Below, piece by piece: positions 2,519 to 17,808 of a DNA stretch of 56,983 bases; within the stretch, counting starts at the first letter, position 1, and each line of letters opens with the position of its first letter. Source of the stretch: Candidatus Aenigmatarchaeota archaeon. GTDB lineage: Archaea; Aenigmatarchaeota; Aenigmatarchaeia; QMZP01; JAFGSV01. Below the pieces are notes generated by a model. The model did no database searches and was not told the DNA's origin. It saw nothing but the letters and a program-made list of their open reading frames with translations. The translations under genes and the position numbers were made by a program. Where the stretch lies: positions 1 to 56,983 of the forward strand of contig JAGGXP010000018.1 in assembly GCA_021163005.1 (NCBI GenBank), read 5' to 3'.

Positions 2519-4079
2519 TTCTTGCGGCATATATCTGCTTATGATAAATCCATGGCTGCTCGTGGGCGGCACCGGCATGATGCTCGCCGCTCTTGTGCCC
2601 GCACTCTGGTGGCGCTACAAAAAGCTCGTTTCGTGGAGATTCTTCGCGGCAGGCGGCCTTGCATGGCTCGCTGCGATAGCTGTGAAGGCTGCGATGGACC
2701 TGTCTGTCACGCCGGTGCTCGTCAGCTGGCTTTCAGGCACCTACACGCTCATGGGCATAGCCATACTGAGCGGCGTCTATGTCGGAACCAGGACCGGGGT
2801 GCTGGAAACACTGTTCTCTTATGTTGCGGCAGTGAAGTCCGGCTTTGGGAAAATCAGCTTTGACGAGGCCGTTGCCTTCGGCATCGGCTTCGGGTGTGCG
2901 GAGGCGTTCCTTCTGGGCATGTCGTCCTTTCTCACTGTCTCTGTTTTCATGGCATTCCCGCAGATAGTGGGCGCTCTGGCTCCCGCGCAGAAAGCCGCTG
3001 TCATGCAGCAGCTGAGCGCGCCCACGTACATGGCGCTGTTCCCCATAGCTGAGAGGATATTCACCATACTGGTTCATGTATTCTGCGGCATACTTGTGGT
3101 AAACTATCTGAGAACCCGCAGGTTCAGGTATTTCATGCTGCCTGTCGCATGGAAGACGCTGCTTGACGGCATGTTGCCGCTCTTGCTGCTGGTCTTTGAT
3201 GTGTCATCACTGGACGGGCTCTTCTATATCGAATTGTTTGTCGCTGTGATGGGACTTTCGAGCGCTGTAGGCATCTTCTGGATTAAGGAGAGATATAATG
3301 AAAAGCCGGAAAAGGGGAGCGGGTATATGAGGACTGCGGCTTCTGTGTCTGTCTTCGTTCTGGTTGTCCTCGTTGTGGCGCTTGTGCTCGCCCAGCCGAA
3401 CGCGGGAACCATGTTCGAAAGGAGACCCGTGGATTTCGACAGCTTCAGCGGCACGTACAGCATCAACATAAACGGGAGCCGCGCGGGCACGAGCATGTTC
3501 GAATACGTGGGACCTGCGAGATACAGGGGCATGGAGACGTTCCTGATTCACGAAACAACAAACTTCTCCTCTCCTGAATACAGCATGGTCATAGAAGGGG
3601 ACCTTTACACAACTGTTGACGGAAGGCCTGTTTTCTACAACTCGACGCTGACGAGGGGCATTGACACGAGGCGTATATCATGCGAATTCGCCGGCGGCAT
3701 GGTGAACGAGACCATTGTCCAGAACAATGCAACCAAGACCTCCATCGTGCCGTACGACGACAACGGCTTCATAATAGCAAACAACATGATATCGCACTGG
3801 GCCCTGCTGTTCAGGTCTGTAAAATTCGGTGAGAAAAACAACTACATAGCTAGGCTTTACAGCCCGGACATGGAGACAGAGGTCACGCGCTCCTTTTCTG
3901 TCGCCGGTGCAGGGATGCTGAGAGTTCAGGGAGAAGTCTATGATGTCTACGTGTTCAGGGAGAGCACAGGGAATACGTATTATGTAACGCCGGAAGGTAT
4001 GCTGCTGAAAATATCAGGGCCGCTTGTGGAGATTATCATAAGCGACGGCCAGCCCGGGGAAGGCGGTATATTCAGGTAG
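2490..4079 (+). CDS. Multi-pass membrane protein with a C-terminal extracytoplasmic domain. The N-terminal part may be YhfC-like.
   Basis: About 7 hydrophobic helices in the first 290 aa, one more TM, then a soluble domain of about 230 aa. The start is uncertain: 2490 overlaps the GGR end and Met at 2541 is an alternative. Confidence 0.5.
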   Translation: MSSSLGTLFNSCGIYLLMINPWLLVGGTGMMLAALVPALWWRYKKLVSWRFFAAGGLAWLAAIAVKAAMDLSVTPVLVSWLSGTYTLMGIAILSGVYVGTRTGVLETLFSYVAAVKSGFGKISFDEAVAFGIGFGCAEAFLLGMSSFLTVSVFMAFPQIVGALAPAQKAAVMQQLSAPTYMALFPIAERIFTILVHVFCGILVVNYLRTRRFRYFMLPVAWKTLLDGMLPLLLLVFDVSSLDGLFYIELFVAVMGLSSAVGIFWIKERYNEKPEKGSGYMRTAASVSVFVLVVLVVALVLAQPNAGTMFERRPVDFDSFSGTYSININGSRAGTSMFEYVGPARYRGMETFLIHETTNFSSPEYSMVIEGDLYTTVDGRPVFYNSTLTRGIDTRRISCEFAGGMVNETIVQNNATKTSIVPYDDNGFIIANNMISHWALLFRSVKFGEKNNYIARLYSPDMETEVTRSFSVAGAGMLRVQGEVYDVYVFRESTGNTYYVTPEGMLLKISGPLVEIIISDGQPGEGGIFR

Positions 4080-4109
4080 CAATTTAAGGACGCATTGCAT
4101 GTATTTTCT

Positions 4110-4907
4110 ATGCAGTTCATAGAGGCTTTCGTGCTTGCAGTCGTGCAGGGACTCACTGAATGGCTTCCTGTCAGCAGCGAGGGTGTATCCTCGCTTGTCA
4201 TGATAAACTTCTTCGGAAGAAGCCTTAATGAGGCAATTTACCTTTCTGTGTGGCTTCATACAGGCACGCTGCTCGCAGCCACGCTCTATTTCAGGAAGGA
4301 CATGGCATGCATGCTCAGGAACCTGCCGGCGTACATAAGGAATCCGAACGACAAAGAGGACTATTCCGGGCTTACGAGGTTTTTGCTTGTGTCGACATTC
4401 ACGACAGCTGTGATAGCTGCCCCTCTTGTGGTCTTTTTCGTTGACGCACTGAACTTCTCCGGCGGCGCTGCAATGGCGTTCATAGGTGCCCTTTTGATAA
4501 TAACCGGGCTGCTCCAGATGCTGACGAAGGCCGGTTCGGTTGTCTCTGACAGTCCGAGGTTCTCCGACGCCCTGTTTTCAGGCGCCGCACAGGCATTCTC
4601 CGTCTTTCCGGGCCTCAGCAGGTCCGGCCTGACTGTGAGCGCACTCCTGCTGAGAAAGCACGACCCGGAATACGCACTGAAGCTGAGCTTCCTTATGAGC
4701 ATACCCGCAGTATTCGTGGCTGAGGTGGGGCTGGCCGCCACAGGCAGGATTTTCATATTCGACAGCTTTGCCCTGCTTGCTGTGCTGATTTCATTCGCTG
4801 TCGGGTTCCTGACACTGGGTTCCCTGCTTAGGATAGCCCAGAAAATAAACTTCGGATACTTCTGCATATTCCTCGGGGCACTCAGCCTTCTGGCGGTGCT
4901 CATATGA
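4110..4907 (+). CDS. uppP: Undecaprenyl/polyprenyl-diphosphate phosphatase (UppP/BacA family)
   Basis: QGLTEWLPVSSEG near the N-terminus and the PGLSRSG motif, with 7-8 TM segments. ATG at 4110 is preferred over the TTG at 4095 used by the track. Confidence 0.85.
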   Translation: MQFIEAFVLAVVQGLTEWLPVSSEGVSSLVMINFFGRSLNEAIYLSVWLHTGTLLAATLYFRKDMACMLRNLPAYIRNPNDKEDYSGLTRFLLVSTFTTAVIAAPLVVFFVDALNFSGGAAMAFIGALLIITGLLQMLTKAGSVVSDSPRFSDALFSGAAQAFSVFPGLSRSGLTVSALLLRKHDPEYALKLSFLMSIPAVFVAEVGLAATGRIFIFDSFALLAVLISFAVGFLTLGSLLRIAQKINFGYFCIFLGALSLLAVLI

Positions 4908-5493
4908 GCACGAATATTCTGAGGACAGATATTGACAGCCCTGCTATCAGCGGTATCGTGATGTTGTCTTCTATGCGCCTTCCCTTAAGGTAGTCAACGG
5001 ACTCGACGAACATGGCTATGTATGCCGCTATGAACGACTCTGTAAGGGAGACGAAGAACGTTCCGGCAAGAAAGGCCACGAAGAAGCCGGCAGTGCTGGC
5101 GTCAAGCACCTTCTCCCTGTTCAGCGGATGCATTATCCTGTTGAGCCGGGTTGCTATTATCGGCGACAGCGAGTCTCCCACAGCCAGTATGGTTATCGAC
5201 GCAAGGGCTATGTCCTCCGGGAAAAGCGCGGCAGCGAGTGTCATGCCGAAGAACATGAAGACTGCGCCGCGTCCGGGGAAACTCCCGTTTTCCTCGCCGC
5301 GTCCGAAAAAGCGTATGAGTGTGTCTATCACAGGCACTGGCTTCCGCTTCTGCGCAAGGGAAATGACGAACCCCGCTGCTGTTATGCCTGCAAGCACCCA
5401 TGCGTCTATGTAGCCGAAATAGAGGAGGAACACCACAGCTATCCCTGCTCCCAGATGGAACAGGTTCCTCTCAAGCCCGGTTTTCTGCCGCAT
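4900..5493 (-). CDS. Polyprenol/dolichol kinase-like membrane protein (CTP-dependent cytidylyltransferase superfamily)
   Basis: GDSLSPIIATR ... KVLDASTAGFFVAF pattern and 6 TM helices. The track ORF is trimmed to Met at 5493 because its upstream part overlaps the kaiC-like CDS. Confidence 0.5.
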   Translation of the reverse strand: MRQKTGLERNLFHLGAGIAVVFLLYFGYIDAWVLAGITAAGFVISLAQKRKPVPVIDTLIRFFGRGEENGSFPGRGAVFMFFGMTLAAALFPEDIALASITILAVGDSLSPIIATRLNRIMHPLNREKVLDASTAGFFVAFLAGTFFVSLTESFIAAYIAMFVESVDYLKGRRIEDNITIPLIAGLSISVLRIFVLI

Positions 5494-5530
5494 GCTAAAA
5501 ATATAAGCCCGCTTACTAAAAAGAATATTC

Positions 5531-6250
5531 ATGGACAGGATAAGCACAGGTGTGGACGGGCTTGACAGCAAGATGGAAGGCGGATTCTTTAAGGGGAGCA
5601 GCAACCTCATTGTAGGCAAGACGGGCACCGGAAAGACCATATTTGCGTCGTCTTTCATTTACAAAGGCGCCCTCGAAGGCGCACCCGGCGTCTACATAAC
5701 CACAGAGCAGCGCGAGGAAGATGTCAAGCAGGACATACAGGCGATGTTCGGCTGGGATATGTCAGCACTGGAGAAGAACAATCTCGTCAGGTTCGTCTCC
5801 ATAAAGCCGACGCTGCCGACCAAGAGCATAACACAGGATGACATGGCGAGGCTTGTGAAGTCCTATGTGTACACCATAACCGAGACCATAGAGGAGGCAG
5901 TGAAGGAAGTAAAGGCCAAAAGGGTTGTCATAGACTCTGTTTCGTTCATAGAGATGTTCATAAAGGACGAATATCTGGCAAGGGCTGCCCTGCTTCAGCT
6001 GGTCGAAACGCTGAAGGAGGCCGGCGTGACAGCTGTGTTCACCGGCATGGTTCCGGAGGAGGGAGAAGCGCTGTCAGGCGGCGGCATAATAGAATACATC
6101 GTCGATACAGTGATAAAGATGGAATTCGTTCCGGTTGCGGAAAACTTCAAGAGGACGCTGACCATAAGGAAGATGAGAAGAACCGACCACTCCACGCTGA
6201 TACACCCTGTTGACATAACGAAAAACGGCCTGAAGGTGATAGAACTGTGA
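5531..6250 (+). CDS. KaiC/RadA-like single-domain RecA-superfamily ATPase
   Basis: ISTGVDGLDSKMEGGF, then Walker A GKTGTGKT. Walker B is VVIDSVS. Confidence 0.8.
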   Translation: MDRISTGVDGLDSKMEGGFFKGSSNLIVGKTGTGKTIFASSFIYKGALEGAPGVYITTEQREEDVKQDIQAMFGWDMSALEKNNLVRFVSIKPTLPTKSITQDDMARLVKSYVYTITETIEEAVKEVKAKRVVIDSVSFIEMFIKDEYLARAALLQLVETLKEAGVTAVFTGMVPEEGEALSGGGIIEYIVDTVIKMEFVPVAENFKRTLTIRKMRRTDHSTLIHPVDITKNGLKVIEL

Positions 6251-6435
6251 GCCTTTTCAATTTGAGGCAGGAAGAGATAGAGGCCTACTGCGTCAGGTGC
6301 CGCAAAACTGTTCTCATGAAGAACATAGAGGATTATGAGATGAAGAACGGGAAAAAGGCCTGGAAGGGGACGTGCTCGGAATGCGGGGCGGTGCTGTTCA
6401 GGATAAAGCCCGCGCCGAGAGAGGGCATGTGGTAA
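6247..6435 (+). CDS. Small zinc-ribbon protein (DUF5679-like), copy 1
   Basis: AYCVRCRK...KNGKKAWKGTCSECGAVLFRI. The GTG start overlaps the kaiC-like stop, and TTG at 6262 is an alternative start. Confidence 0.6.
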   Translation: MSLFNLRQEEIEAYCVRCRKTVLMKNIEDYEMKNGKKAWKGTCSECGAVLFRIKPAPREGMW

Positions 6436-6520
6436 TTTGCCCTCTGAAAAACCCGAACGCCCTTTCATTTATATACCATGAAGTGAATATTCAACCACAT
6501 ACAAATTCGGAGGTTTTCAA

Positions 6521-6661
6521 ATGGTAGAAGCTTATTGTGTTAAGTGCAAGAAAAAAGTCGAAATCAAGAACCCTGAGGTAGTTACGCTGAAGAACGGAAA
6601 AAAGGCAACAAAAGGCGTTTGCCCGAACTGCGGCACCAAAGTCTTCAGAATTGGTGGCTAA
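6521..6661 (+). CDS. Small zinc-ribbon protein (DUF5679-like), copy 2. At 46 aa it is below the ORF-track cutoff.
   Basis: Hand translation gives MVEAYCVKCKKKVEIKNPEVVTLKNGKKATKGVCPNCGTKVFRIGG*. A GGAGG-like SD sits 7 nt upstream. It is paralogous to 6247-6435. Confidence 0.7.
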   Translation: MVEAYCVKCKKKVEIKNPEVVTLKNGKKATKGVCPNCGTKVFRIGG

Positions 6662-6671
6662 TCCGCTAAAT

Positions 6672-6705
6672 AGGGCACTTATGCCCTTTTATTTTTATTT
6701 TATTA
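6672..6705 (+). terminator. Hairpin plus oligo-T terminator
   Basis: agggca-ctta-tgccct stem-loop followed by ttttatttttattttatt. Confidence 0.6.
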
Positions 6706-6740
6706 CTGCTTTTTCTATTGTATTGTAGAAGGTGTTGAGT

Positions 6741-8468
6741 ATGCACTTGAGACAGCCTATAGTATCGATACTTGGACATGTGGATCACGGGAAGACCACG
6801 CTGCTCGACTACATAAGGGGCAGCGTTGTGGCTAAGGGAGAGGCAGGCCTCATAACGCAGCACATAGGAGCCAGCGAGGTGCCCATTGACTACATAAAGA
6901 AAATCTCGGGCCCATTGCTCGAAAAGATGAAAGTGGATGTGAAAATACCCGGGCTGCTGTTCATAGATACACCTGGCCATGAGGCGTTCACCACGCTGAG
7001 GAAAAGGGGCGGCGCTGTCGCTGACATCGGCGTCCTGATAATAGACATAAACGAGGGCATGCAGCCGCAGACAGAGGAATCCCTGCGATTCCTCAAGGAC
7101 TTCAGGACACCATTCGTGATAGCCCTGACGAAGATAGACAAGCTGACAGGATGGTTCCCCAACAAGGGCGAAAGCTTCCTTTCCACGTGGCAGGAGCAGC
7201 CGGAGAGGGTGAGGGACGAGTTTGAGAGCAAGTTCTACGGCATCGTCGGCCAAATCGCCTCGCACGGCTTTGAGGCAGACAGGTACGACCGCATAGAAGA
7301 CTTCACGAAGAAGATAGCCATAATACCGGTCAGCGGCGTGACAGGAGAGGGTGTGCCGGACCTGCTGATGCTGCTTACAGGACTCTCGCAAAGGTTCCTT
7401 GAGGACAGGCTCCACATAACGCTGGGCGAGGGCAAGGGCACGGTTCTCGAGGTCAAGGACTACAAGGGGCTCGGGACCACAATAGATGTCATACTCTACG
7501 ACGGCGAGATAAGCACAGGGGACTGGCTCGCCGTAGCTGCGGACACTATCATTGTGACGAAGGTGAGGGCGCTCCTGAAGCCGAATCCCATGAAGGAGAT
7601 ACGCGTCGAGAAGGCATTCCGGGCCGTGAGCAGGGTAACGGCAGCTTCGGGCATAAAGATAGCGGCTCCTGACCTTGGCGGGGTGATTTCCGGCTCACCG
7701 CTCAGGGCAGCATCAAGCATGGACATGCTCGAGCGGGCGAAGAGGGAGATAAAGGAAGAGGTCGCTGAGGTCGAGATAGACACAGACAACAGCGGCGTGA
7801 TGCTGAAGGCGGACACGCTGGGCTCGCTGGAAGCGCTCGTGAAGACGCTGAAGGACATGGAAGTCCCCATAAGGAAGGCGGAAATAGGCGACGTCACGAG
7901 GCAGGACGTCATGGAAATGAAAAGCATACCCAAGGCTCTTGTTTTCGCTTTCAATGTAAAGGTTCCTGAGGACATAAAGCTGCTGTCTGAGGACAACGGT
8001 GTCAAGATATTCAGCTCTGATGTCATATACAGGCTCCTTGAGGATTATGAGCAGTGGAAAAAGGATACCACGAAGAGAATGGAGGATGAGATGCTTTCAG
8101 GTGCCAGCCGCCCGGGAAGGATAAAGATAATGCCCGGTTATGTGTTCCGCCAGTCAAAGCCGGCCATAGTCGGCGTTGAGGTCACCAAGGGCATGGTAAA
8201 ATCCAACAGCAGGCTTGTCAGGGACGGAAAGGATATAGGCCATGTAAGGGAGCTCCAGAAGCAGGGAGAAAACGTGAGCTCTGCCGAAAGCGGCGACAAG
8301 GTTGCGGTTTCGATAGAAGGCGCCGTTGTTGGAAGGAACATAGAGGAAGGAGACGAGCTTGACGTGAAGCTCACCGGCCACGACCGCGAGATTCTGAAAA
8401 AGCTCAGGCACAGGCTGAGAGGCGATGAGCTTGAGCTTCTTGACGAGCAGAATAAACGAAACATTTAA
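6741..8468 (+). CDS. infB: Translation initiation factor aIF5B (IF-2 homolog)
   Basis: LRQPIVSILGHVDHGKTTLLD G-domain, DTPGHEAF, and full length typical of aIF5B. ATG at 6741 is preferred over GTG at 6732. Confidence 0.95.
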   Translation: MHLRQPIVSILGHVDHGKTTLLDYIRGSVVAKGEAGLITQHIGASEVPIDYIKKISGPLLEKMKVDVKIPGLLFIDTPGHEAFTTLRKRGGAVADIGVLIIDINEGMQPQTEESLRFLKDFRTPFVIALTKIDKLTGWFPNKGESFLSTWQEQPERVRDEFESKFYGIVGQIASHGFEADRYDRIEDFTKKIAIIPVSGVTGEGVPDLLMLLTGLSQRFLEDRLHITLGEGKGTVLEVKDYKGLGTTIDVILYDGEISTGDWLAVAADTIIVTKVRALLKPNPMKEIRVEKAFRAVSRVTAASGIKIAAPDLGGVISGSPLRAASSMDMLERAKREIKEEVAEVEIDTDNSGVMLKADTLGSLEALVKTLKDMEVPIRKAEIGDVTRQDVMEMKSIPKALVFAFNVKVPEDIKLLSEDNGVKIFSSDVIYRLLEDYEQWKKDTTKRMEDEMLSGASRPGRIKIMPGYVFRQSKPAIVGVEVTKGMVKSNSRLVRDGKDIGHVRELQKQGENVSSAESGDKVAVSIEGAVVGRNIEEGDELDVKLTGHDREILKKLRHRLRGDELELLDEQNKRNI

Positions 8469-8492
8469 GTTTGTTTTCCGATATGTATATGC

Positions 8493-9074
8493 ATGAGCAC
8501 GAAAAAGGCCGGTCCGGGCTTTAAGATAAAGGTTCAGAACATAGTTGCGTTCACTGTTCTCGGAAAGCCCATTTCCCTTGACGAGATGCTGCAGAAGGTT
8601 GATAACACGGAATGGCAGCCCGAGCAGTTTCCGGGGCTGGTGCTTAAGATAAACAACCCGAGGGCATCGGCTCTCATATTCTCCCAGGGAAAGGTCGTAT
8701 GCACGGGCACGAAGTCCCTCGAAGACCTCGAAAAGGCCATGAAGAAGATTGTCTCCGCCATCAGAAAGGCCGGCATATCCATGCCCAACAAGTACAGCAC
8801 AAAGGTCGAGAACATAGTTGCCTCGACCAAACTCGACGGCGAAATCAGCCTCGAGAACATAGCGCTGAAGCTGGAAAACAGCGAATACGAGCCTGAGCAG
8901 TTTCCGGGGCTGGTGTACAGGATAAGCGAGCCGAGGGTGGCATTCCTGCTCTTCAGGTCCGGCAGGGTGATATGCGCAGGCGCCCAGAATGAGGAAGACA
9001 TACACAGGGCCCTTGAAAGGCTGGTGGAAAACCTCGGGAAAGTCGGCATCAGGGTGAAGCCTGCGGACATCTGA
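8493..9074 (+). CDS. tbp: TATA-box binding protein (canonical)
   Basis: Two repeats, each with the E(P)EQFPGLV and LIFxxGKVVCTG / LLFRSGRVICAG motifs. Confidence 0.95.
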   Translation: MSTKKAGPGFKIKVQNIVAFTVLGKPISLDEMLQKVDNTEWQPEQFPGLVLKINNPRASALIFSQGKVVCTGTKSLEDLEKAMKKIVSAIRKAGISMPNKYSTKVENIVASTKLDGEISLENIALKLENSEYEPEQFPGLVYRISEPRVAFLLFRSGRVICAGAQNEEDIHRALERLVENLGKVGIRVKPADI

Positions 9075-9102
9075 TTTTTAACCGAGTGCGCTCATTCTAA
9101 AT

Positions 9103-9636
9103 ATGGACGAGGCATTTTGGGGTACAGTGACATCGCTCGGCGATCCCGTCATATGGTCGCTGATAGTAATAGTGCTCATTTTCGTGCATTTCCTGATGGA
9201 AAGGAAGGTGATAAGGTTCAGGAATTCCGATAAGTACAGGAGGGTGCTGAAGAACTTCCTGCTGCTTATAGTGCCTACCCTGTTCCTTGCGCTTCTCAGC
9301 TCAGAGGCACTCAAGATGTTCTTTCAGGTGCCGAGGCCGTGCATCCCGTGCCCGGCGGCCGGCTGCAATCCCTTCTGCCTGAGCTCGTATTCGTTTCCTT
9401 CGGGGCACAGCGCCACCATGACGAGCATAGCCACGGCGCTGTTCCTGTTGCTCAGGAAAAGAAAACGCTATCTTGTCATATTCGTGTTCCCGATTGCCAT
9501 CGGCCTCTCAAGGCTGGCGCTCGGCGTCCATACGGTCTTTGACGTCGCCGGCGGGTTCGCGCTCGGGCTCCTCGTCACTGTCCTGGTATGGAAGATGAGG
9601 AAAAGCATCTACAAGTGGGAAGACGAGGTGCTGTAG
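9103..9636 (+). CDS. PAP2-family lipid phosphatase
   Basis: PSGHS and SRLALGVHTVFDV acid-phosphatase motifs, with 5 TM helices. Confidence 0.85.
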   Translation: MDEAFWGTVTSLGDPVIWSLIVIVLIFVHFLMERKVIRFRNSDKYRRVLKNFLLLIVPTLFLALLSSEALKMFFQVPRPCIPCPAAGCNPFCLSSYSFPSGHSATMTSIATALFLLLRKRKRYLVIFVFPIAIGLSRLALGVHTVFDVAGGFALGLLVTVLVWKMRKSIYKWEDEVL

Positions 9637-9708
9637 AGGTCAAGTTGAAAGAGAAGGTTGCCAAAGATAAACTGATAAATTCACAAAAGCATATTTAATG
9701 GTGGACGA

Positions 9709-12700
9709 ATGAATCCGGATGTTAGGCATTTAATAGAAAAATTTGAAGAAATGCTCACGCTGAACGGGCGCAAAAGGGTTTTTGAGGACGGGCAGAAATT
9801 ATCAACTGATTTCATAAACCAAAAATCCGACCCAGAAGCATTCACGAAAGAATTTCTCATAGAGCCGGTATTCAGAAAATTTAACCTGTCAAAATTAACG
9901 GAAAAGCATTTCAGAGGTATTAAGCAAGATTTGAGAAAAGTTGACTATGTCTTGAAAAACCATAAAGGCGAATCATTTTTAGCTGAAGCAAAGCCTCTCA
10001 ATTCTGATTTATTTGACAAATCATCTGATGGCGCAGTAAATCAGATTAAAGGTTTGTTCAGATTGGCAGAAGTTCAGAGGGATTACGAATTCGGCATAGC
10101 CACAGACGGATTAAAATGGATTTTCATTGACAAAAACTCTAAGGTTGTTTTTCAGTACGACTTGAGAGATGAGTTGGACAAAATAAGAGAAATATTAGTA
10201 GGAAAGGAAGAAGTGTCGTCAGAACGGATTGAAGAAGAAATCAGCAAAAAATTTTATGTATGGTATAACGCACTTCTTCACGGAGGAAAATACAAAGACC
10301 ATGAAAACAAAACCGGAACAATTTCAACCAAAGATTGCTTGGTTGAAAATATTCTTTTTGTTTCAAAGCCCGAAGACAAGAAACAGATAGCACAAACAAT
10401 TATGGACAGGCTCATTTTCATAAAATTCCTGCAATCAAAAGAAATTGTCGGCTATGATATCCTTAAGTATCTATCAAGCTTGGAAGAAAATATCCTGAAC
10501 GAAAAAATGAAACAACTGTTTTTTTCCGTGCTGAATACGAAAGAAAGTGAAAGAGTTGACATTGACCCCAAATTCAAAGGAATTCCGTATCTGAACGGCA
10601 GTCTGTTCGTAAGGACTGATGCAGAAACGAGAAATCCTGATTATAAGATAAGGGCTTTCATACTGAAAAAAGTCATAAAATTCTTGGACTCTTTCAAGTT
10701 CGTTCATACAGAAGACGTGTCCAACAAAAAAATCTTAGACCCTGAGATTCTTGGCTATATCTTTGAAAGGGCCATGACAGCCACGGACAGAAAAGGGACA
10801 GGTGCTTATTACACACCAAAGACCATAACGACCTACATATCAAAAAATACAATTCATCCTGTCATTGTCAAGAAAGTGAACAAACTGCTGAAAGAAAAAG
10901 GTTATAAAGACTCCGAATTGCTTAAAGACATAGAAGAAGTTTACAGGTTAAGGGAATCCACATTAGGAGAGGTTTTCAGCAAAATTATTCTCAATCTGAG
11001 AGTATGCGACAACGCCTGCGGCTCTGGGGCCTTTTTGCTGGCAGCTGCCGATGTATTACTGAAGGTTTACCAGAGAATAAAAGAGGAATTGAGATTAAGA
11101 AATTCTGAAATATCAATGAGAAAACTGATTTTGCAGAATAACCTTTATGGCGTGGATATAAACCCGAACGCCATTGAAATAGCAAAGCTGAGATTATGGC
11201 TGTGGCTTGTAACCGCATACGAGCCTGACAAAGTTGAGCCTTTGCCAAACATAGATTATAACCTACGGGTAGGCAATAGCTTAATCGGTTATGTTGATAT
11301 TAGCAAATTCAAAGATCACAAACTAACACTTTTAGACTGGTATAGTGCTGAAAAATCATTGAATATTCTCCTGAAAAAAAGAGAAGACAAAATCAAAGAA
11401 TATAAAACAGCTGCCGGAGATAAGGCAAGGGAGCTTAAATCAGAAATTGATGATCTTGATAAAAAAATAAAAAAACTGCTTGATATAAATCTGTTCCAAG
11501 AAATTAGCAAGAAAACAAAAATAGACGAGGAAGAATTCAGAAAAATCAACCCGTTCCATTGGGGCTTTGAATTCTATGATATTTTCGATGGCGACGGAGA
11601 GACAGATGAAAAAGGATTTGATGCTATTATAGGAAATCCGCCTTACATAAGAATACAAAATCTTAAATTAGAATCTCCTGCACAAGTAGAGATATTCAAA
11701 AAAATATACAAAACGGCGTCTAAAGGAAATTATGATATTTACGTTTTGTTCGATGAACGATCATTAAAATTAGTAAATGATGTTGGAATATTGGGTTATA
11801 TTCAACCACATAAATTTTTCCAAGCAAATTATGGAGAGGCACTCAGAGGAATTATTTCACGAAATAAATACCTCAGGGAAATTGTAAACTTCATGGATCA
11901 ACAGGTCTTTGTTGGAGCTACAACATATACATGCTTGTTGTTCTTAAGCAAACAGGAACACGAAAACTTTAGGTACGCCCAAATTGATAGAGTAGTTAAT
12001 TTATCTAACCAGCTTGAACAAATTGAACTGAATAAGAAAACAAATATAAAAATCGAGATTATACCTAGCACTTTAGTTTCTAGCTCTCCCTGGTCATTTG
12101 GAGTTGGACAAGAAATATCGATTTTATCTAAACTCAAATCAATTGAAAGCAACCTTGATTCCGTAACTGAAAGGATATTTCAAGGTGTTAGAACAGGAAT
12201 AGATGATATTTTTGTTCTAGATATAAGAAAAATAAAGGGCAAAAAAATATTAGGATTTTCTAAAGCATTGAAGAAAGATGTTGAAGTCGAATTAGGCATT
12301 ACATTTCCATTGGTTAAAGGGGAACAAATGTTAAGGTATTCCATAGATGATGCTAAAAAGAGGATTATTGTGCCATATTATGTAGACGAAAAATATCATT
12401 TAATTAAAGAAAGTGAAATGAAATTAAAGTATCCTCTTTGTTGGGAATATTTGAAAGAAAATAAAGAAATTTTAGAGAAGAGAGAAAGGGGTAAAATTGC
12501 CAAAATTGGTTGGTGGGGGTTTAGTAGAACACAGAATATTGATATAATAAGGAGGCAAAAAATTCTTACTGCTGATTTAGCTAACCATAACTCATTCAGC
12601 CTTGATGAAACTGGTGAAATACATTTCACAAGTGGTTATGGAATAATACCAAAAAAAGACTATCCAATAAAATTACTTTTGACTATTCTGAATAGTAAAT

Positions 12701-12957
12701 TGCTAGAGTGGTATTTACGAAAGATATCAACCACATTTAGAGGAGGTTATTATTCTTGTGAATATAGATTTATCAAAAACTTGCCTATTATAGAAGCAAA
12801 TAAAATTGAGAACAATATTAAGAACAAGCTCATTTCTCTTTGCGAAAAGGCTTTAAATGGCGATAAGAAATCTGAAAGTGAAATAGATATGCTGATTTAC
12901 AGAATCTACGGAATAACTAACGAAGAACAAAAAATCATAGAGGAGAGTTTGAAGTAA
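9709..12957 (+). CDS. Single-chain Type IIG/IIL-like restriction-modification enzyme (N-terminal PD-(D/E)xK nuclease, gamma-class N6-adenine methyltransferase, C-terminal specificity region)
   Basis: VDYVL...LAEAKP (9940-9993) looks like D...ExK. SAM motif I is DNACGSGAF (11008-11031). Catalytic motif IV is GNPPY (11631-11645). A C-terminal region of about 400 aa follows. The gene is AT-rich. Confidence 0.8.
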   Translation: MNPDVRHLIEKFEEMLTLNGRKRVFEDGQKLSTDFINQKSDPEAFTKEFLIEPVFRKFNLSKLTEKHFRGIKQDLRKVDYVLKNHKGESFLAEAKPLNSDLFDKSSDGAVNQIKGLFRLAEVQRDYEFGIATDGLKWIFIDKNSKVVFQYDLRDELDKIREILVGKEEVSSERIEEEISKKFYVWYNALLHGGKYKDHENKTGTISTKDCLVENILFVSKPEDKKQIAQTIMDRLIFIKFLQSKEIVGYDILKYLSSLEENILNEKMKQLFFSVLNTKESERVDIDPKFKGIPYLNGSLFVRTDAETRNPDYKIRAFILKKVIKFLDSFKFVHTEDVSNKKILDPEILGYIFERAMTATDRKGTGAYYTPKTITTYISKNTIHPVIVKKVNKLLKEKGYKDSELLKDIEEVYRLRESTLGEVFSKIILNLRVCDNACGSGAFLLAAADVLLKVYQRIKEELRLRNSEISMRKLILQNNLYGVDINPNAIEIAKLRLWLWLVTAYEPDKVEPLPNIDYNLRVGNSLIGYVDISKFKDHKLTLLDWYSAEKSLNILLKKREDKIKEYKTAAGDKARELKSEIDDLDKKIKKLLDINLFQEISKKTKIDEEEFRKINPFHWGFEFYDIFDGDGETDEKGFDAIIGNPPYIRIQNLKLESPAQVEIFKKIYKTASKGNYDIYVLFDERSLKLVNDVGILGYIQPHKFFQANYGEALRGIISRNKYLREIVNFMDQQVFVGATTYTCLLFLSKQEHENFRYAQIDRVVNLSNQLEQIELNKKTNIKIEIIPSTLVSSSPWSFGVGQEISILSKLKSIESNLDSVTERIFQGVRTGIDDIFVLDIRKIKGKKILGFSKALKKDVEVELGITFPLVKGEQMLRYSIDDAKKRIIVPYYVDEKYHLIKESEMKLKYPLCWEYLKENKEILEKRERGKIAKIGWWGFSRTQNIDIIRRQKILTADLANHNSFSLDETGEIHFTSGYGIIPKKDYPIKLLLTILNSKLLEWYLRKISTTFRGGYYSCEYRFIKNLPIIEANKIENNIKNKLISLCEKALNGDKKSESEIDMLIYRIYGITNEEQKIIEESLK

Positions 12958-12966
12958 GGTGTTCAA

Positions 12967-14121
12967 ATGCCGAGAAAATCTATAAAGATTGACGTGAAGC
13001 CTGATGTTTTCAAATGGCTCAGGGTGAGTGCCGGCTGGAATATTGAGGAAGTAAGCAAAAGAATAAAAACGAGTCCTGAAACTGTGAAAGCCTTTGAAAC
13101 AGGAGATAAAACACCTACTTTTAGGCAGCTGAAAGAATTGTCCCGAAGCTTCAGAAGGCCCGTGGCGGCATTTCTGCTTCCGGAACCCAAGAAGGAAAAG
13201 GGAAAACCGAAGGATTACAGATTCATTCCAGGCAGGAGTGGAATATTTGATAAAAAAACTATACTTGTCTTAAGGGAAGCACGGAGCCTACAGGAAGCAG
13301 GAAAGGATTTATCCAGTAATATTGAATACGAAACTAAGGCGAAAGTTGAAAAGGTTGGGCTTTCAGCTGATCCTGAAAAAATAGCAAAAAAATACAGGGA
13401 AGTCTTCGGATTGACCGAAGAAAAACAAAAAAGATTCAAAAGGACCTATGACTTATTCAATTATCTGAGGGACATCCTTGAGGACATGAATATTCTTGTA
13501 TTTCAGTTTTCTATGCCAGTGGAAGATGCAAGAGGTTTTGTTTTGTCGGATGAATCCCCAGCTGTCATAGTTGTCAACACTATGGATACAATAGAGGCAA
13601 GATTATTTTCTTTGATGCACGAGTTTGCACATATACTGTTGGGGCAATCTGTGATAGATTTTCCAGACATCTCGTCGTCAGTCAGGAACAGCGTTGAAAA
13701 ATGGTGCAATGAGTTTGCAGCATCGGTGCTTCTTCCTAAAGAAATAGCGAGGGTATTATTTGAAGCAAATCGTGGTAATTTGATAGAGAGAACGAGGCTT
13801 AATTATTTGTCGAGAAAATACAAAGTCAGCAAAGCTATGCTTTTATTTAATATGATGAAGATGGGTTATATAACAAAAACTGAATACGAAAACAAACTCA
13901 GCATATATCATCCAAAAGAGGCAGAAGCAAAAAAGAAGGGTGGGAAAGCCGGTGGTGGAATTCCAGCGGATAAGAGGTGCATTTCAAAGGTCGGAACCAA
14001 ATTTGTTTCTCTTGTGGCTAACAATTACGACCATGGTTATATAACCTATACTGACGCCCTGAATTATCTTTCGATAAAATCCAAAAACTTTGACAAAGTG
14101 CTGGCAAAGGCGATGAAATGA
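12967..14121 (+). CDS. XRE-type HTH fused to an ImmA/IrrE-family zinc metallopeptidase
   Basis: N-terminal HTH (WNIEEVSKRIKTSPETVKAFETGDKTPTFRQL). HEFAH zinc motif at 13618-13632. Overlaps the next gene by 4 nt. Confidence 0.8.
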   Translation: MPRKSIKIDVKPDVFKWLRVSAGWNIEEVSKRIKTSPETVKAFETGDKTPTFRQLKELSRSFRRPVAAFLLPEPKKEKGKPKDYRFIPGRSGIFDKKTILVLREARSLQEAGKDLSSNIEYETKAKVEKVGLSADPEKIAKKYREVFGLTEEKQKRFKRTYDLFNYLRDILEDMNILVFQFSMPVEDARGFVLSDESPAVIVVNTMDTIEARLFSLMHEFAHILLGQSVIDFPDISSSVRNSVEKWCNEFAASVLLPKEIARVLFEANRGNLIERTRLNYLSRKYKVSKAMLLFNMMKMGYITKTEYENKLSIYHPKEAEAKKKGGKAGGGIPADKRCISKVGTKFVSLVANNYDHGYITYTDALNYLSIKSKNFDKVLAKAMK

Positions 14122-14612
14122 CTTCTAATTATTATGTTATTGATACATCATCATTGGTTGGGTTGAATAGACACAATCCAATTGACGTTTTTCCCGGTTT
14201 ATGGAAGAAACTGGAAGGATTGGTTAATAAAGAAAGGTTGGTTGCACCGCGAGAAGTGATGTATGAAATCCTTCAAAATGATGATCATCTATCCAAATGG
14301 GTAAAAAAACAGAAAAGGATGTTCAAAGATCCTACTCCAAGACAAATAGAACTTGTGAAAGAAATAGTAAGCAGATATCCCTCTTTGATAAATCTTGACA
14401 ACAAATACAGTGCAGACCCTTGGGTCATAGCATTGGCAAAAGAATTGGCGACAAATCCACAGACAACGGTATTTTATATAAAAAGAATTGTTGTATCAGA
14501 AGAGAAGCTGAGAGGAAATAAAATTAAAATCCCCCTAGTATGCAACAATTATCAAATAGAAAATATGGATATAGTAACGATGTTTAGAACTGAGGGTTGG
14601 AAGTTTGAATAA
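14118..14612 (+). CDS. DUF4411 PIN-like nuclease-fold protein
   Basis: YVIDTSSLV at the N-terminus, ...PREVMYEI..., SADPWVIALAKE. This is the typical DUF4411 pattern and the typical partner of ImmA/IrrE-HTH proteins. Confidence 0.7.
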   Translation: MTSNYYVIDTSSLVGLNRHNPIDVFPGLWKKLEGLVNKERLVAPREVMYEILQNDDHLSKWVKKQKRMFKDPTPRQIELVKEIVSRYPSLINLDNKYSADPWVIALAKELATNPQTTVFYIKRIVVSEEKLRGNKIKIPLVCNNYQIENMDIVTMFRTEGWKFE

Positions 14613-14672
14613 TTATGAATCATCTAGTCTCATAACGTTCGTAATTTTAGTGATGATCATGCTATTTGTTAA

Positions 14673-14996
14673 CTAAACATTGCTTGGATATGGAACTCCA
14701 CAAAGAAACGATGTTTTTGAAATTAACACTAACAACAACAGAACTATGACCACAACACGAATAAACCATGTACCTGTTATCGCAAACTCTGAATTTAAAT
14801 ATTCAGGAAGCAATTTCCAGAATAAAACAATAGAACCAAAAAAGATTACTACTCGAAATATAGAAGTTCCTTCACAGTCAGCATAAATATAAGGAATTTT
14901 CAAATCCCAAGCTGATGTAAACATGAGTCCGATTAGTAAACCTAAGAAAATACCTGTCAAAAATTCTTTATTTTGGGTTTTTTCTTGACCTTTCAT
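14673..14996 (-). CDS. Small membrane protein (3 predicted TM helices), unknown function
   Basis: Hydrophobic segments only and AT-rich like the island. Convergent with the three island genes. Confidence 0.45.
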   Translation of the reverse strand: MKGQEKTQNKEFLTGIFLGLLIGLMFTSAWDLKIPYIYADCEGTSIFRVVIFFGSIVLFWKLLPEYLNSEFAITGTWFIRVVVIVLLLLVLISKTSFLCGVPYPSNV

Positions 14997-15011
14997 TATA
15001 AGCCCTAATAT

Positions 15012-17753
15012 TTACCTGTACCTCAGGATGCCTGCGAGGCCGCCCATTTCGTAAAGCTGCTCGCCCTCGTGCGTATCGACCGAGACTATTTCGAGTTTCG
15101 TGCCCACGTTTTCCGCGAACTTGTCGAGGACCTCTATGCCGTCGGTTTCTTTTTCCACTTCCACGCTTCCGCCGCAGTCGCATTTCAGCTCTCTGATTTT
15201 GTCCTTTTTGACCATCTTCCTGATTTTCTTCCCGCAGGCGCTGCACTTCCCTTCGACTTCCACCAAGTCGAAGTCCTCGGAAACCAGCAGTATCTCAACA
15301 GAGCCGCTTTCGAGCGCCTTCAGCGTCTCATGTATGCCATATACAGCGAGGCCGTTGTCCTTTGAGAGTTCTGAGAAGAAGCGTTCCAGAAGCTTCCTCT
15401 CCCTTGTCACGGACGCCTCTGCCAGTATGTCCTCGGCTCTTGCAATCATCTCCTCGAGCCCCGGAACGCCTGTATAGGACGTGTCGATGACGCCTATTAC
15501 CTTTGACTTTATGTCAGTCGGGATGTGGTCGCTGTTGAAGAACATGTCCTTTATCGGCCCCGGGCCGCCTATGAGTATGCCTTTCATGTCCTTGGTCTCG
15601 CGGAAATATGAGGTAGCTATCTCCGCCGTCTTCTTGAGGTGGTCGTTCAGCAGTCCTTCCCTGACGCGCGCATAACGGGCCTGTGAATTGTGGACTATGA
15701 TGCCGTTCGCCATGAAGTTCCTGTATTTTGGCACTTCCATGTCGTAGAACTTCCCGTCAGGCCTGACCTTCTCTATCGACTTTATCCTTGCTGATATGAG
15801 CCCGGATTCAGCCATCGAGCGGAGGGACGAGAGAGCGGCGGCTGCCTTGGGAGAACTGCCGAGCTTCTTTTCTATGGTTTTCATGATGTTCCTGTGGAAA
15901 ACCGGATAGCTCATTCCCTTCCTGTCGAAAAAGAAATCCTGGACCTTCGGGAAATCATCAGTCGTGAGGCCCAGCTCGTGTATGAGTCTGAGCACGTGGC
16001 TTCCGAGGAACGGTATCTGGTCCGTGTAGGTGTTTCTGGAAGCTGTCTTCGTTATCTCTGAAAGGACTCCGGCCTTCTTCGCGGAAAGCAGTGGTATATG
16101 CTTTGAAAACCTCAGGAGGGACTCTCCGTCTGTTATGACGAGGGCGTATCTCATGTGCCGGGCGAAGCTTCCCCTCGCCGGCACGGCCTTCATAGAACTG
16201 ATGATGCCGAACCTCAGGAGGAGGAGCTGCAGCTTTGCTATTATATGGCGCTCCTTCATCGTTATCCCTGCCGAGCCGTTGCTTTTGGTTGCATAGCCTT
16301 CTGCATCCCATATGCCGCCTACGAAATGGGCTACAACGTCCGGCGGGGACATGGTTATGGACTCCGGTATGTCCCTCTCGCTGTTTTTGAATACCTCCGG
16401 GAAGCTCTTGCGCAGCATGTCGCACAGGTGCCTTGAATGGAGCCTTGTTTCATGGTAGTTTCTGCCGCCCCTCTTCCTGGGAGAAGCCCTGACACCGAAG
16501 AGCTTTTCGGAAATCCGGGAGTACTCCTCAGCGAGAGCGCGGTCTCCTTCGTTCAGCGTCAGCCGGTTTTTCTCTATGCCACCGTCGCCGATGAAATACC
16601 CAATGAATCTCGCCGCATCCCTTGTCAGCATATTTGGCCATTTTATCGCCGGAGCAGCATTTGCTACTCTGCTCATGGCGGAACGGGGGAGAGCATACGC
16701 GCCGAGAATCCTCTCGAGCAAATCGGAACCCGGTTCCCTTTCGCCCCTCTCGAACTTGGATATGAATGTCTGGGAAACGCCTGCCTTCTCCGCAACCTGC
16801 CTCTGCGTGAGCCCGAGGGACCTCCTCTTTCCCGCGAGAAATTTCCTGCCCTGCTCCGTGACCCTGTGAATCACGGGCGCTTCCGCTTCTATGCTCTGCA
16901 TGCTGCCACTGAAATCAAGCGACCTGAGGCAGAGCAGCCTCTCGCCTGCTGAAAGCTCGCCGGCAGCCTTCGTGCCGAACCCGTCGGGTGTGGGAACGAA
17001 GAATTTGTGCTCAGGTGTCACTGTTATGCTCATGGACGGGGCCTTGGTCGAGATTCTCAGCGCTTCATTGCTTTTTCTGACAAAATAATGGGCATGCCTG
17101 GCGGCGGCACGTGTCATCCTGCTGAAATCATATGAGACGAATTTCTCGCTGCCTATCTCGCTTACCTTTTTTATCCTTCCGTCCGAAAGCTGCATAAAAC
17201 TGTCTTCATGGACGCACCACCCGCCTTTCTTCGTCTTTCCGGGAACAAGGGACTCTATGTGCTTCAGCGACTCTATGCGCTTTCCCGCAAGAAGCCCTAT
17301 CTCAGAGTCAGACTTGTCGAGCACTATGAGGCCGTATATCTCCTTCTCCCTGACCATGTGCTTCAGCGGGTCGAGGACGAACGTCTGGTCGCACCTGTAA
17401 AGCCGCTGGTTGAGCTTCTCCGGCGGCTCTATTGCCCAGAGCTCTATGTCGCTGTCCCCTTCCTTTTCGGAAACGTTGCCGCAGAATATGGCGAGCCCGT
17501 TCGGCGGGGTAGACCTGTAAAGCTTGAGGTGCTGGGCGACCTTTTCGAGCGCCCCGAGCACATTCTTCCTGACCGTCTTCGACTTTATGTTAGCCGCTGT
17601 CCCCTGCTCCTGCGTAACCTGAGTGCCGACTATGTTGAGGTTGGCGCCTGCCGGCACGTATATGGTTATGAGCTCCGTATGCCTGCCGCGTATGGAGCCG
17701 AGCTTCTTTATCAGCCCCTTGAGCCTCTTCTGGGCTATGGTTTCCATGGCCAT
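15012..17753 (-). CDS. prf1: Peptide chain release factor aRF1, interrupted by an intein
   Basis: NIKS (TAANIKS) and YxCxxxF (YRCDQTF) are present. ...[10 protein letters not shown]|C...intein...HN|[10 protein letters not shown] aligns with GGQ|S of e/aRF1. The C-terminal domain has a CxxC...CxC zinc ribbon. The first ATG is at 17753; the track starts at GTG 17762. Confidence 0.9.
15687..17216 (-). mobile_element. Intein (510 aa) with a LAGLIDADG homing-endonuclease domain and an embedded XRE-type HTH
   Basis: Starts with CVHEDSF (Cys codon 17214-17216). Block B is TPEH. LAGLIDADG motifs are GYFIGDGG and GGIWDAEGY. The HTH is [24 protein letters not shown]. It ends with IIVHN (Asn codon 15687-15689) followed by Ser. 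Confidence 0.85.
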
Positions 17754-17808
17754 GTCAATCACGTGCTTAAAATTGAGACTGCGAATTTAAATGAGTCCGC
17801 AGAAATCG

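Follow-up and report, generated by a model that had tools for sequence, protein, structure and literature searches.

The 56,983-nt contig JAGGXP010000018.1 (assembly GCA_021163005.1) of a Candidatus Aenigmatarchaeota archaeon (DPANN), referred to below as the window, carries an AT-rich island between its PAP2 and aRF1 genes. With a probability of about 0.8, it is best explained as an acquired defence island, the core of which is a Type IIG restriction-modification (R-M) enzyme and a toxin-antitoxin (TA) pair of the VapBC52/RosmerTA type, encoded by a three-gene cassette that is inherited as a unit. All three modules of the cassette belong to known families. The first-pass annotation of this DNA had gone further and suggested two-layer immunity, with restriction acting first and a protease-gated nuclease as the back-up; this idea is plausible but unproven.

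Base composition and insertion site of the island

The island is delimited by the stop codon of the PAP2 gene, which ends at position 9636, and that of the aRF1 gene at position 15012. The G+C content of these 5375 nt (9637–15011) is 35.1%, against 50.9% for the remaining part of the window, in agreement with the initial estimate by eye of about one third inside and more than half outside. The lowest value found for any other 5.4-kb segment is 46.9% (mean 50.7, sd 1.9), placing the island at z = −8.3. Both edges are sharp: in 60-nt steps, G+C content drops from 0.67–0.72 to 0.33–0.37 within approximately 100 nt of the end of the PAP2 gene, and rises from 0.35 to 0.53–0.60 over 30–60 nt at the aRF1 stop codon. 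The G+C content at third codon positions (GC3) is 0.34, 0.40, 0.31, and 0.24 in the genes for the Type IIG enzyme, the XRE-M78 antitoxin, the DUF4411 toxin, and a small open reading frame (ORF), respectively, and 0.70–0.76 in the flanking genes IF5B, TBP, PAP2, and aRF1.

The flanking genes are archaeal. Relatives of the window were sought in the genome collection with TBP as the query; the PAP2 query returned no relatives from this collection. The top TBP match, 79% identical, belongs to a Candidatus Aenigmatarchaeota metagenome-assembled genome (L001), the only one close enough for analysis of synteny. The gene order IF5B-TBP-PAP2-aRF1 is kept in L001, with protein identities of 77, 79, 65, and 69%, respectively, and the PAP2 and aRF1 stop codons are 9 nt apart. 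The entire 5.4 kb, including the small membrane ORF, is absent from this closest available relative. Since an empty site is found together with foreign codon composition, the difference is attributed to insertion in the lineage of the window and not to deletion in L001. The island was probably acquired horizontally by an Aenigmatarchaeota genome of approximately 51% G+C, between the convergent 3′ ends of the PAP2 and aRF1 genes. The earlier description of the locus as an accessory island between core genes is confirmed by the foreign composition and the empty site, and the comparison of PAP2/aRF1 synteny that it had called for revealed a relative lacking the island rather than sharing it.

The donor was probably a low-G+C lineage of the DPANN type, as suggested by other copies of the cassette (L081/L082 and L164/L165, described below), which have the same G+C content as their own contigs, 30–32%. 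Deviant composition and presence/absence at a conserved site are accompanied by no integration signature: the search of the borders found no direct or inverted flanking repeats, no tRNA gene, and no Rfam match, and no recombinase or integrase is encoded by the four ORFs of the island.

Conservation of the three-gene cassette

The geometry of the genes was described correctly in the first-pass annotation: a 9-nt gap separates the Type IIG gene from the XRE-M78 gene, and a 4-nt ATGA overlap (14118–14121) joins the latter to the DUF4411 gene directly downstream. The same succession of the Type IIG gene, 9-nt gap, XRE-M78 gene, 4-nt overlap, and DUF4411 gene recurs in two independent contexts, namely L081/L082, a pair of contigs that are nearly identical although they come from two JGI samples, and L164/L165, which hold the closest homologue of the Type IIG enzyme. 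In blastn comparisons, the window is 76–80% identical to these contigs at the DNA level; the homology starts 12–24 nt before the ATG codon of the Type IIG gene and stops at the stop codon of the DUF4411 gene, and the sole non-aligning part of the cassette is the specificity-domain region (11646–12897). The window shares the intergenic junction (Table 1) letter for letter with L081 and L164. Protein identity to the window is 75–84% for residues 1–756 of the Type IIG enzyme, 78% for XRE-M78, and 77–81% for DUF4411. Because identities are even except in residues 757–1040 of the Type IIG enzyme, it seems that the cassette has been inherited whole with its specificity domain swapped. On this homology the three genes are one unit in the evolutionary sense, and the view of the three plus-strand genes as a single block holds with respect to inheritance, given the recurrence of gene order, gap, junction, and overlap.

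Co-transcription of the three genes is inferred from their spacing, the 9-nt gap holding a conserved Shine-Dalgarno sequence and the next two genes overlapping by 4 nt; transcription is possibly driven by read-through from the PAP2 gene, and no oligo-T run is present in the 72 nt that separate this gene from the Type IIG gene. An ORF of approximately 50 codons for a ribbon-helix-helix (RHH)-like protein is located directly upstream of the Type IIG start, or overlaps it, in the relatives (L081, 510–665; L167, 4853–5008; L164, 4671–4820). Its product has weak Pfam matches to RepB-RCR_reg, RHH_5, and CcdA and is a possible controller. The RHH-like gene is absent from positions 9637–9708 of the window. 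The 72-nt leader found there was considered as a remnant of this gene; the similarity consists of a patchy match (TGATAAATTCA) and the conserved Shine-Dalgarno/ATG region only, and this origin is unproven.

Close homologues of the Type IIG enzyme without the TA pair are encoded in L166 and L169. A gene for a Bro-N domain protein follows the Type IIG/Eco57I-like genes in L166 (8199–9062), where it replaces the TA pair, and in L123 (2289–3164), where it is located between the methylase gene and the TA pair.

Table 1. Location of the island and its predicted features in the window.
Feature	Position	Strand	Remark
AT-rich inserted island	9637–15011		PAP2 stop to aRF1 stop; G+C 0.351 vs 0.509
Conserved three-gene mobile unit (Type IIG, XRE-M78, DUF4411)	9685–14612	+	Homology with other contigs
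Predicted Type IIG R-M enzyme, 1082 aa: nuclease, gamma-class N6-adenine methyltransferase, and specificity domain	9709–12957	+	
Predicted N-terminal PD-(D/E)xK nuclease domain of the Type IIG enzyme (aa 1–190; D79, E93, K95)	9709–10278	+	pLDDT 91.6
Hypervariable target-recognition domain of the Type IIG enzyme (aa 757–1040)	11977–12828	+	Includes TaqI_C match, aa 908–1027
9-nt Type IIG/XRE-M78 junction with GGTG Shine-Dalgarno sequence	12958–12966	+	TAAGGTGTTCAAATG
Predicted antitoxin, 384 aa: XRE-type helix-turn-helix, IrrE/ImmA (M78) zinc peptidase, and C-terminal domain; VapB52-like/RmrA-like	12967–14121	+	
Predicted toxin, 164 aa: DUF4411 PIN-like nuclease, VapC52-like, predicted tRNase	14118–14612	+	Pfam DUF4411
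Orphan 107-aa ORF with three hydrophobic segments, island cargo	14673–14996	−	No family match; GC3 0.24

The Type IIG enzyme

The assignment of the first gene to Type IIG, proposed from the sequence at the outset, is corroborated by several lines of evidence. The protein matches the Pfam families Eco57I (7e-43), N6_Mtase, MmeI_Mtase, and TaqI_C and the Type IIG models of PADLOC, down to 6e-96 for REase_MTase_IIG. The nuclease motif D79...E93-x-K95, the S-adenosylmethionine-binding motif D434-x-ACGSGAF, and the catalytic NPPY motif (residues 643–646) are invariant across 31 homologues. When the whole chain is modelled with AlphaFold (pLDDT 82.9), its first structural matches are CamA and M.BseCI, followed by PglX and by the Type IIG/IIL enzymes BpuSI, MmeI, and DrdV. 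The fold search with the whole chain was swamped by the methylase module, and the nuclease domain was modelled separately. Its top Foldseek match is the nuclease domain of DrdV (E 6e-6), with a TM-score of 0.55 between the model and the isolated DrdV nuclease chain 7lvv_D; further matches are a nuclease fragment of HsdR (3h1t), followed by Cas4, RecU, Exo5, and Hjc.

Residues 757–1040 are only 18–24% identical between the copies of the cassette, against 67–84% for residues 1–756, and the columns of this domain in the alignment of homologues show no consensus. No other methylase gene and no S gene are present in the island or, according to tblastn, elsewhere in the window. A nuclease and a methyltransferase in one chain, gamma-class motifs, and a target-recognition domain in the same chain are the features of a Type IIG enzyme, and together they support the prediction of a self-contained nuclease-methylase. 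Like the Type IIG (IIL) enzymes MmeI, Eco57I, and DrdV, the protein unites in one chain a nuclease, a gamma-class N6-adenine methyltransferase with the NPPY motif, and a TaqI_C domain, and the specificity of these enzymes changes by domain swapping, as in the copies of the cassette. It differs from the solved Type IIG enzymes in its sequence, which is 10–19% identical to theirs, and in being followed by a TA pair.

The toxin-antitoxin pair

The product of the second gene, the putative antitoxin, contains the domains HTH_3 (residues 16–66) and Peptidase_M78 (residues 172–295). It is matched by 13 PADLOC RmrA models at E <= 1e-6 (best 1.3e-20), by PADLOC capP at 5e-13, and, below the cutoff of the model, by the NCBIfam model of the spr1629 repressor/antitoxin. 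The product of the third gene, the putative toxin, belongs to the family DUF4411 (PF14367) over its full length (6e-29). The first-pass assignments of the two genes to an XRE-ImmA/IrrE protein and a DUF4411 protein are therefore upheld by the Pfam domains, as well as by matches to both chains of PDB entry 9VZY, the VapBC52 complex of Mycobacterium tuberculosis (Rv2514c/Rv2515c; PDB 9VZY, 9VZZ; Singh et al., NAR 2026, PMC13273310). The antitoxin aligns with 9vzy_A from end to end (residues 11–378; E 2.6e-21; 24.5% identity), and the toxin profile matches the DUF4411 toxins 9vzy_D and 9vzz_A at 6e-15. Judged by these alignments, the XRE-M78/DUF4411 pair is homologous to VapBC52.

VapC52 is a PIN-fold tRNase, which in the complex is bound by the N-terminal helix-turn-helix (HTH) domain of VapB52, while the C-terminal domain of VapB52 occludes the active site (PMC13273310). 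Single-stranded DNA (ssDNA) activates the IrrE-type peptidase of VapB52, leading to self-cleavage at the "FR" motif and release of VapC52, and the system confers resistance to mycobacteriophage D29 (PMC13273310). The idea of a protease-gated nuclease, put forward from the sequence of the window, thus has experimental backing in this homologue. The window pair agrees with VapBC52 in having a DUF4411 PIN-fold toxin and an antitoxin of similar size (approximately 390 aa in VapBC52) composed of an HTH domain, an IrrE-type HEXXH peptidase with Glu as the third zinc ligand, and a C-terminal domain, the antitoxin gene being the first of the two. The motif H218-E-x-x-H222, E244, and D83-Y84-R85 are invariant in 52 antitoxin homologues; the last aligns with D-F-R of VapB52, comprising the self-cleavage motif, with a conservative replacement of the aromatic residue (Y-R here, F-R in VapB52). 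Acidic residues of the toxin, including D9 and D100, are invariant in 38 sequences, and D9 aligns with the residue altered in the catalytic mutant D6A of VapC52. The position of the cysteine switch of VapB52, C229, is different: it is occupied by an invariant isoleucine (I230) in 52/52 members of the subfamily. Given the invariant motifs and this replacement, fold, zinc ligands, and cleavage linker are shared with VapBC52 and one regulatory feature is not. A further difference is that VapBC52 is a stand-alone chromosomal TA system, while the window pair is archaeal and embedded downstream of a Type IIG gene.

RosmerTA (RmrT/RmrA; Millman et al., 2022; Ernits et al., 2023, PMC10440598) likewise has an antitoxin with an HTH domain and an ImmA/M78 zinc peptidase, which pairs with interchangeable toxins. 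The window antitoxin is RmrA-like by its PADLOC matches; its DUF4411 partner is matched by no RmrT model, the sole PADLOC match being a marginal one to PDC-S70 (E 0.005), and for this reason PADLOC calls no complete known system for the pair. The validated RosmerTA toxins have an unknown function or depolarise the membrane and are not PIN nucleases, unlike the PIN-like toxin of the window. Published work does link this antitoxin node to PIN-like toxins. Fused HTH-COG2856/DUF955 proteins paired with PIN/DUF4411 toxins, a combination that falls within the sphere of RosmerTA, had been reported from bioinformatic analyses in 2009 and 2017 (PMC2701414, PMC5499597); the present locus extends the VapBC52/RosmerTA-like family to DPANN archaea. 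In CapH/CapP of CBASS, to which VapB52 shows a structural parallel, a DNA-activated IrrE-family peptidase cleaves an HTH partner and switches on a defence effector. There, one protein is the protease and another the substrate, and cleavage de-represses CBASS at the level of transcription, whereas the window antitoxin would combine both roles in one chain and its output would be the release of a bound toxin.

Association of the pair with restriction-modification genes

A scan of metagenomes with the DUF4411 alignment yielded 80 loci, which were subjected to gene calling, clustering, and annotation of neighbouring genes with Pfam and PADLOC. Wherever DNA upstream of the DUF4411 gene is available, this gene is directly preceded by an XRE-M78 gene. 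An R-M or restriction gene belongs to the same tight run of genes on the same strand in 22/37 non-redundant loci informative upstream and in 20/30 of those informative on both sides, and the gaps between it and the pair are mostly −35 to +33 nt. As a control, the same R-M queries match 0/80 housekeeping loci (1.15 Mb).

The partners are diverse: Type IIG enzymes of lineages 26–31% identical to that of the window; Type I hsdM-hsdS-hsdR operons, with the pair after or before hsdR; Type III mod-res operons; an Eco57I-like methylase with an HKD(PLD)-SNF2 helicase-nuclease of approximately 1060 aa, the pair often lying between them; and GmrSD and SIR2 genes. The linkage is therefore not specific to Type IIG, contrary to the initial interpretation of the window, and the TA pair recurs in at least four R-M architectures. 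In the antitoxin tree, some clades track one R-M architecture and one shallow clade mixes architectures and non-R-M neighbours. Since the antitoxin clades follow the R-M type in part, the association is long-lived; it has also been re-formed repeatedly.

The Eco57I-like methylase (approximately 1230 aa) and HKD(PLD)+SNF2 protein (PADLOC "HKD+Snf2", DrmD-like) form a recurrent two-gene system, found in L113, L147 (e.g., 2180–10684), L125, L134, L142, L086, and L135, with the TA pair between or after the two genes.

The linkage could have no functional meaning if independent systems became adjacent through clustering of defence genes and the dense packing of DPANN genomes, of which the narrow spacing would then be a mere result. 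Other defence genes do occur nearby, including GmrSD (L081, L140, L169), SIR2 (L105), and HEPN (L167, L169), about one third of the informative loci have no recognised R-M neighbour and adjoin genes such as those for an S-layer protein, radical SAM enzymes, or a phage tail protein, and the linkage control consists of housekeeping DNA only. Chance adjacency is nevertheless difficult to reconcile with an identical junction and an about equal divergence of all three genes (77–81%) in the cassette, with the short gaps to R-M genes, and with the repeated location of the pair between the subunits of multi-gene R-M operons; we consider it unlikely.

The search of annotated bacterial replicons gave seven plasmid matches and one unannotated phage record. 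No R-M linkage was found in these replicons, and the pair stands alone in 3/3 plasmid loci examined. Judged by its gene neighbourhoods, the pair is an autonomous module that is habitually captured in R-M operons of any type in these small genomes. Its autonomy on plasmids is compatible with selfish stabilisation, in which the pair would travel in R-M operons as an addiction module that stabilises the mobile cassette through post-segregational killing and no signal would pass from restriction to the toxin. The shift of the pair between R-M types, even within one shallow clade, fits this explanation, as does the finding that copies approximately 72–75% identical to the pair of the window adjoin Type IIG genes, the Res gene of a Type III system (L084), or an unknown gene (L083). 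The absence of an integrase from the island would suit a small selfish cassette, and TA systems have been suggested to cluster with and stabilise defence systems (Matelska et al., PMC5499597). Addiction alone, however, leaves unexplained why R-M operons are preferred over other cargo and why the pair is inserted between methylase and nuclease-helicase genes (L113, L147, L125, L134), and the phage resistance and ssDNA response of VapBC52 point to a sensing role (PMC13273310). Selfish stabilisation is a possibility to be taken seriously, if not a probable one.

The TA pair adjoins a gene for a phage tail tape-measure-like protein in L150 (2672–6210), and a DUF4411 homologue with 37% identity is encoded in the unannotated "Bacteriophage sp." record MT837327.1 (1071–1520), suggesting that viruses may carry the pair too.

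Possible mode of action

In the proposed mechanism, the Type IIG enzyme would methylate host DNA at its recognition site and cut incoming DNA that is unmodified. By homology with VapBC52, the antitoxin would bind and block the DUF4411 tRNase. A DNA signal, which is ssDNA in the case of VapB52, could switch on the zinc peptidase of the antitoxin, and self-cleavage at the D-Y-R linker would free the toxin. The freed toxin would then cleave tRNAs, causing a halt of translation and abortive infection or dormancy. As to what connects the two modules, we tentatively favour, with more doubt than conviction, DNA breaks or ssDNA produced by restriction as the trigger of the antitoxin protease. Restriction products as the trigger would explain why the pair is linked to any type of R-M system. 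The wider proposal that the DPANN-type pair is a general second layer, in which cuts made by any linked restriction enzyme lead to release of the tRNase and shutdown of translation, is somewhat more speculative still. If true, R-M and TA systems would be linked mechanistically, with the restriction product as the signal; PrrC, by comparison, responds to inhibition of the restriction enzyme.

The HTH domain of the antitoxin could instead act in the manner of the controller (C) proteins of R-M systems and repress or time the expression of the restriction function, with self-cleavage serving for de-repression and the DUF4411 protein being secondary. The N-terminal domain of VapB52 is structurally nearest to the R-M controller protein C.Csp231I (root-mean-square deviation 0.96 Å; PMC13273310), and the pair is located directly upstream of HsdR, Type III Res, HKD-SNF2, or GmrSD genes in 13/47 non-redundant loci informative downstream. 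In the window and its closest relatives, on the other hand, the pair is downstream of a fused nuclease-methylase that needs no timing control, the RHH-like gene upstream of the Type IIG gene in relatives is a better candidate for a controller, and the demonstrated role of the VapB52 N-terminal domain is toxin binding (PMC13273310). A controller function is accordingly very improbable.

Several points weigh against the interpretation of the locus as an acquired defence island with a Type IIG-TA core. No integrase, att repeats, or tRNA gene account for the insertion of the island, and the direction of the indel is based on one relative and on composition. Co-transcription of the cassette is deduced from the geometry of its genes. 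The characterised homologue of the antitoxin, VapB52, is only distantly related (24.5% identity), and isoleucine in place of the switch cysteine may mean that the mechanism of activation differs. The control for R-M linkage was a crude one, comprising housekeeping DNA and not other defence genes, so that the enrichment could reflect clustering in defence islands and operon packing in small genomes. Neither module needs the other, as evidenced by the pair standing alone on plasmids and by the Type IIG genes without the pair in L166 and L169. Finally, the biochemical activities of the cassette are predicted ones, and any functional coupling is hypothetical.

Relation to published hypotheses

The existence of R-M operons with embedded toxins that act as a second layer of defence is a published hypothesis modelled on PrrC/EcoprrI (Makarova et al., 2012, PMC3506569; Anantharaman et al., 2013, PMC3710099), of which the two-layer idea is one instance, and the TA pair had likewise been described (PMC2701414, PMC5499597); the novelty ascribed to the two-layer arrangement by the first-pass annotation was therefore overstated. 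According to the 2012 hypothesis, R-M-embedded toxin loci usually lack antitoxins (PMC3506569). Matelska et al. (2017) reported PIN-like toxins for Type I systems only, and none for R-M systems without a specificity subunit (PMC5499597); the window cassette, a PIN-like toxin with such a system, represents the case that they did not see. In the literature searched, the specific Type IIG/XRE-M78/DUF4411 cassette appears to be undescribed, as do the systematic embedding of a VapBC52-like pair in Type IIG, Type I, Type III, and HKD-helicase operons of DPANN-type genomes and an embedded toxin that brings its own sensor-antitoxin.

PrrC/EcoprrI (PMC3506569, PMC3710099) is similar in that a gene for a latent RNase is located inside an R-M operon and tRNA targeting is predicted for the window toxin. 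Such an RNase is proposed to serve as a second line of defence once restriction is engaged or defeated. PrrC is an ABC-ATPase/HEPN anticodon nuclease, silenced by a Type Ic enzyme and triggered by a phage anti-restriction peptide, while the window toxin is a PIN-like DUF4411 protein with no ATPase or HEPN domain and with its own antitoxin and sensor protease, and pairs of its kind are partnered with Type IIG, Type I, Type III, and HKD-helicase systems. Coupling of immunity and suicide was proposed in 2012, and few examples beyond PrrC/EcoprrI are understood mechanistically; the 4.9-kb cassette offers a small, genetically tractable system for the question of triggering by restriction products. 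Even without real coupling, the locus would illustrate in clean form a recently acquired defence island with swapping of the specificity domain.

The small membrane protein and neighbouring genes

The small ORF of the island has three Kyte-Doolittle peaks and a GC3 lower than its GC1, and its length is reached in 9/2000 shuffles; it is probably a real gene. It was described earlier as a convergent gene, which is correct relative to the three-gene block; it runs in the direction of aRF1, beginning 15 nt past the stop codon of that gene on the same strand. No family match was found in Pfam, PADLOC, or NCBIfam and no homologue among 5.8 billion proteins, and one weak relative (E 4e-6), in an unrelated context, was found among 1.84 billion representatives. 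The inclusion of this three-segment protein in the arrangement is not sustained. It lies outside the conserved unit, since no counterpart is present in the other copies of the cassette, where homology stops at the DUF4411 stop codon, and as an orphan it was rejected as a member of the system. The weak relative occurs in L170–L172 (e.g., L171, 813–1163), contigs of 1.0–1.2 kb with approximately 39% G+C, next to a gene for a protein with the terminase-like motif GDDYADAL at its end. The presence of this neighbour hints at a viral origin of the small ORF.

The aRF1 gene (15012–17762, minus strand) carries a 510-aa intein (residues 183–692, approximately 15687–17216), in which splicing domains, two LAGLIDADG domains, and an HTH_3 domain are recognised. 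This intein has a host-like G+C content of 0.54 and is absent from L001. The NIKS motif of aRF1 is present. The GGQ motif, universal in release factors, reads GGW followed by S-Q in the window (KKGGW/SQARYARV, extein junction at approximately 17217–17231/15672–15686), and the intein is inserted exactly at this GGW/SQ point. The intein-free aRF1 of L001 (approximately 11159–12376) also has GGW-SQ, and the more distant archaeon L024 has the canonical KGGQSAARF. A smaller dip in G+C content, to 0.42–0.46, is found at positions 6200–6800 of the window, just upstream of IF5B.

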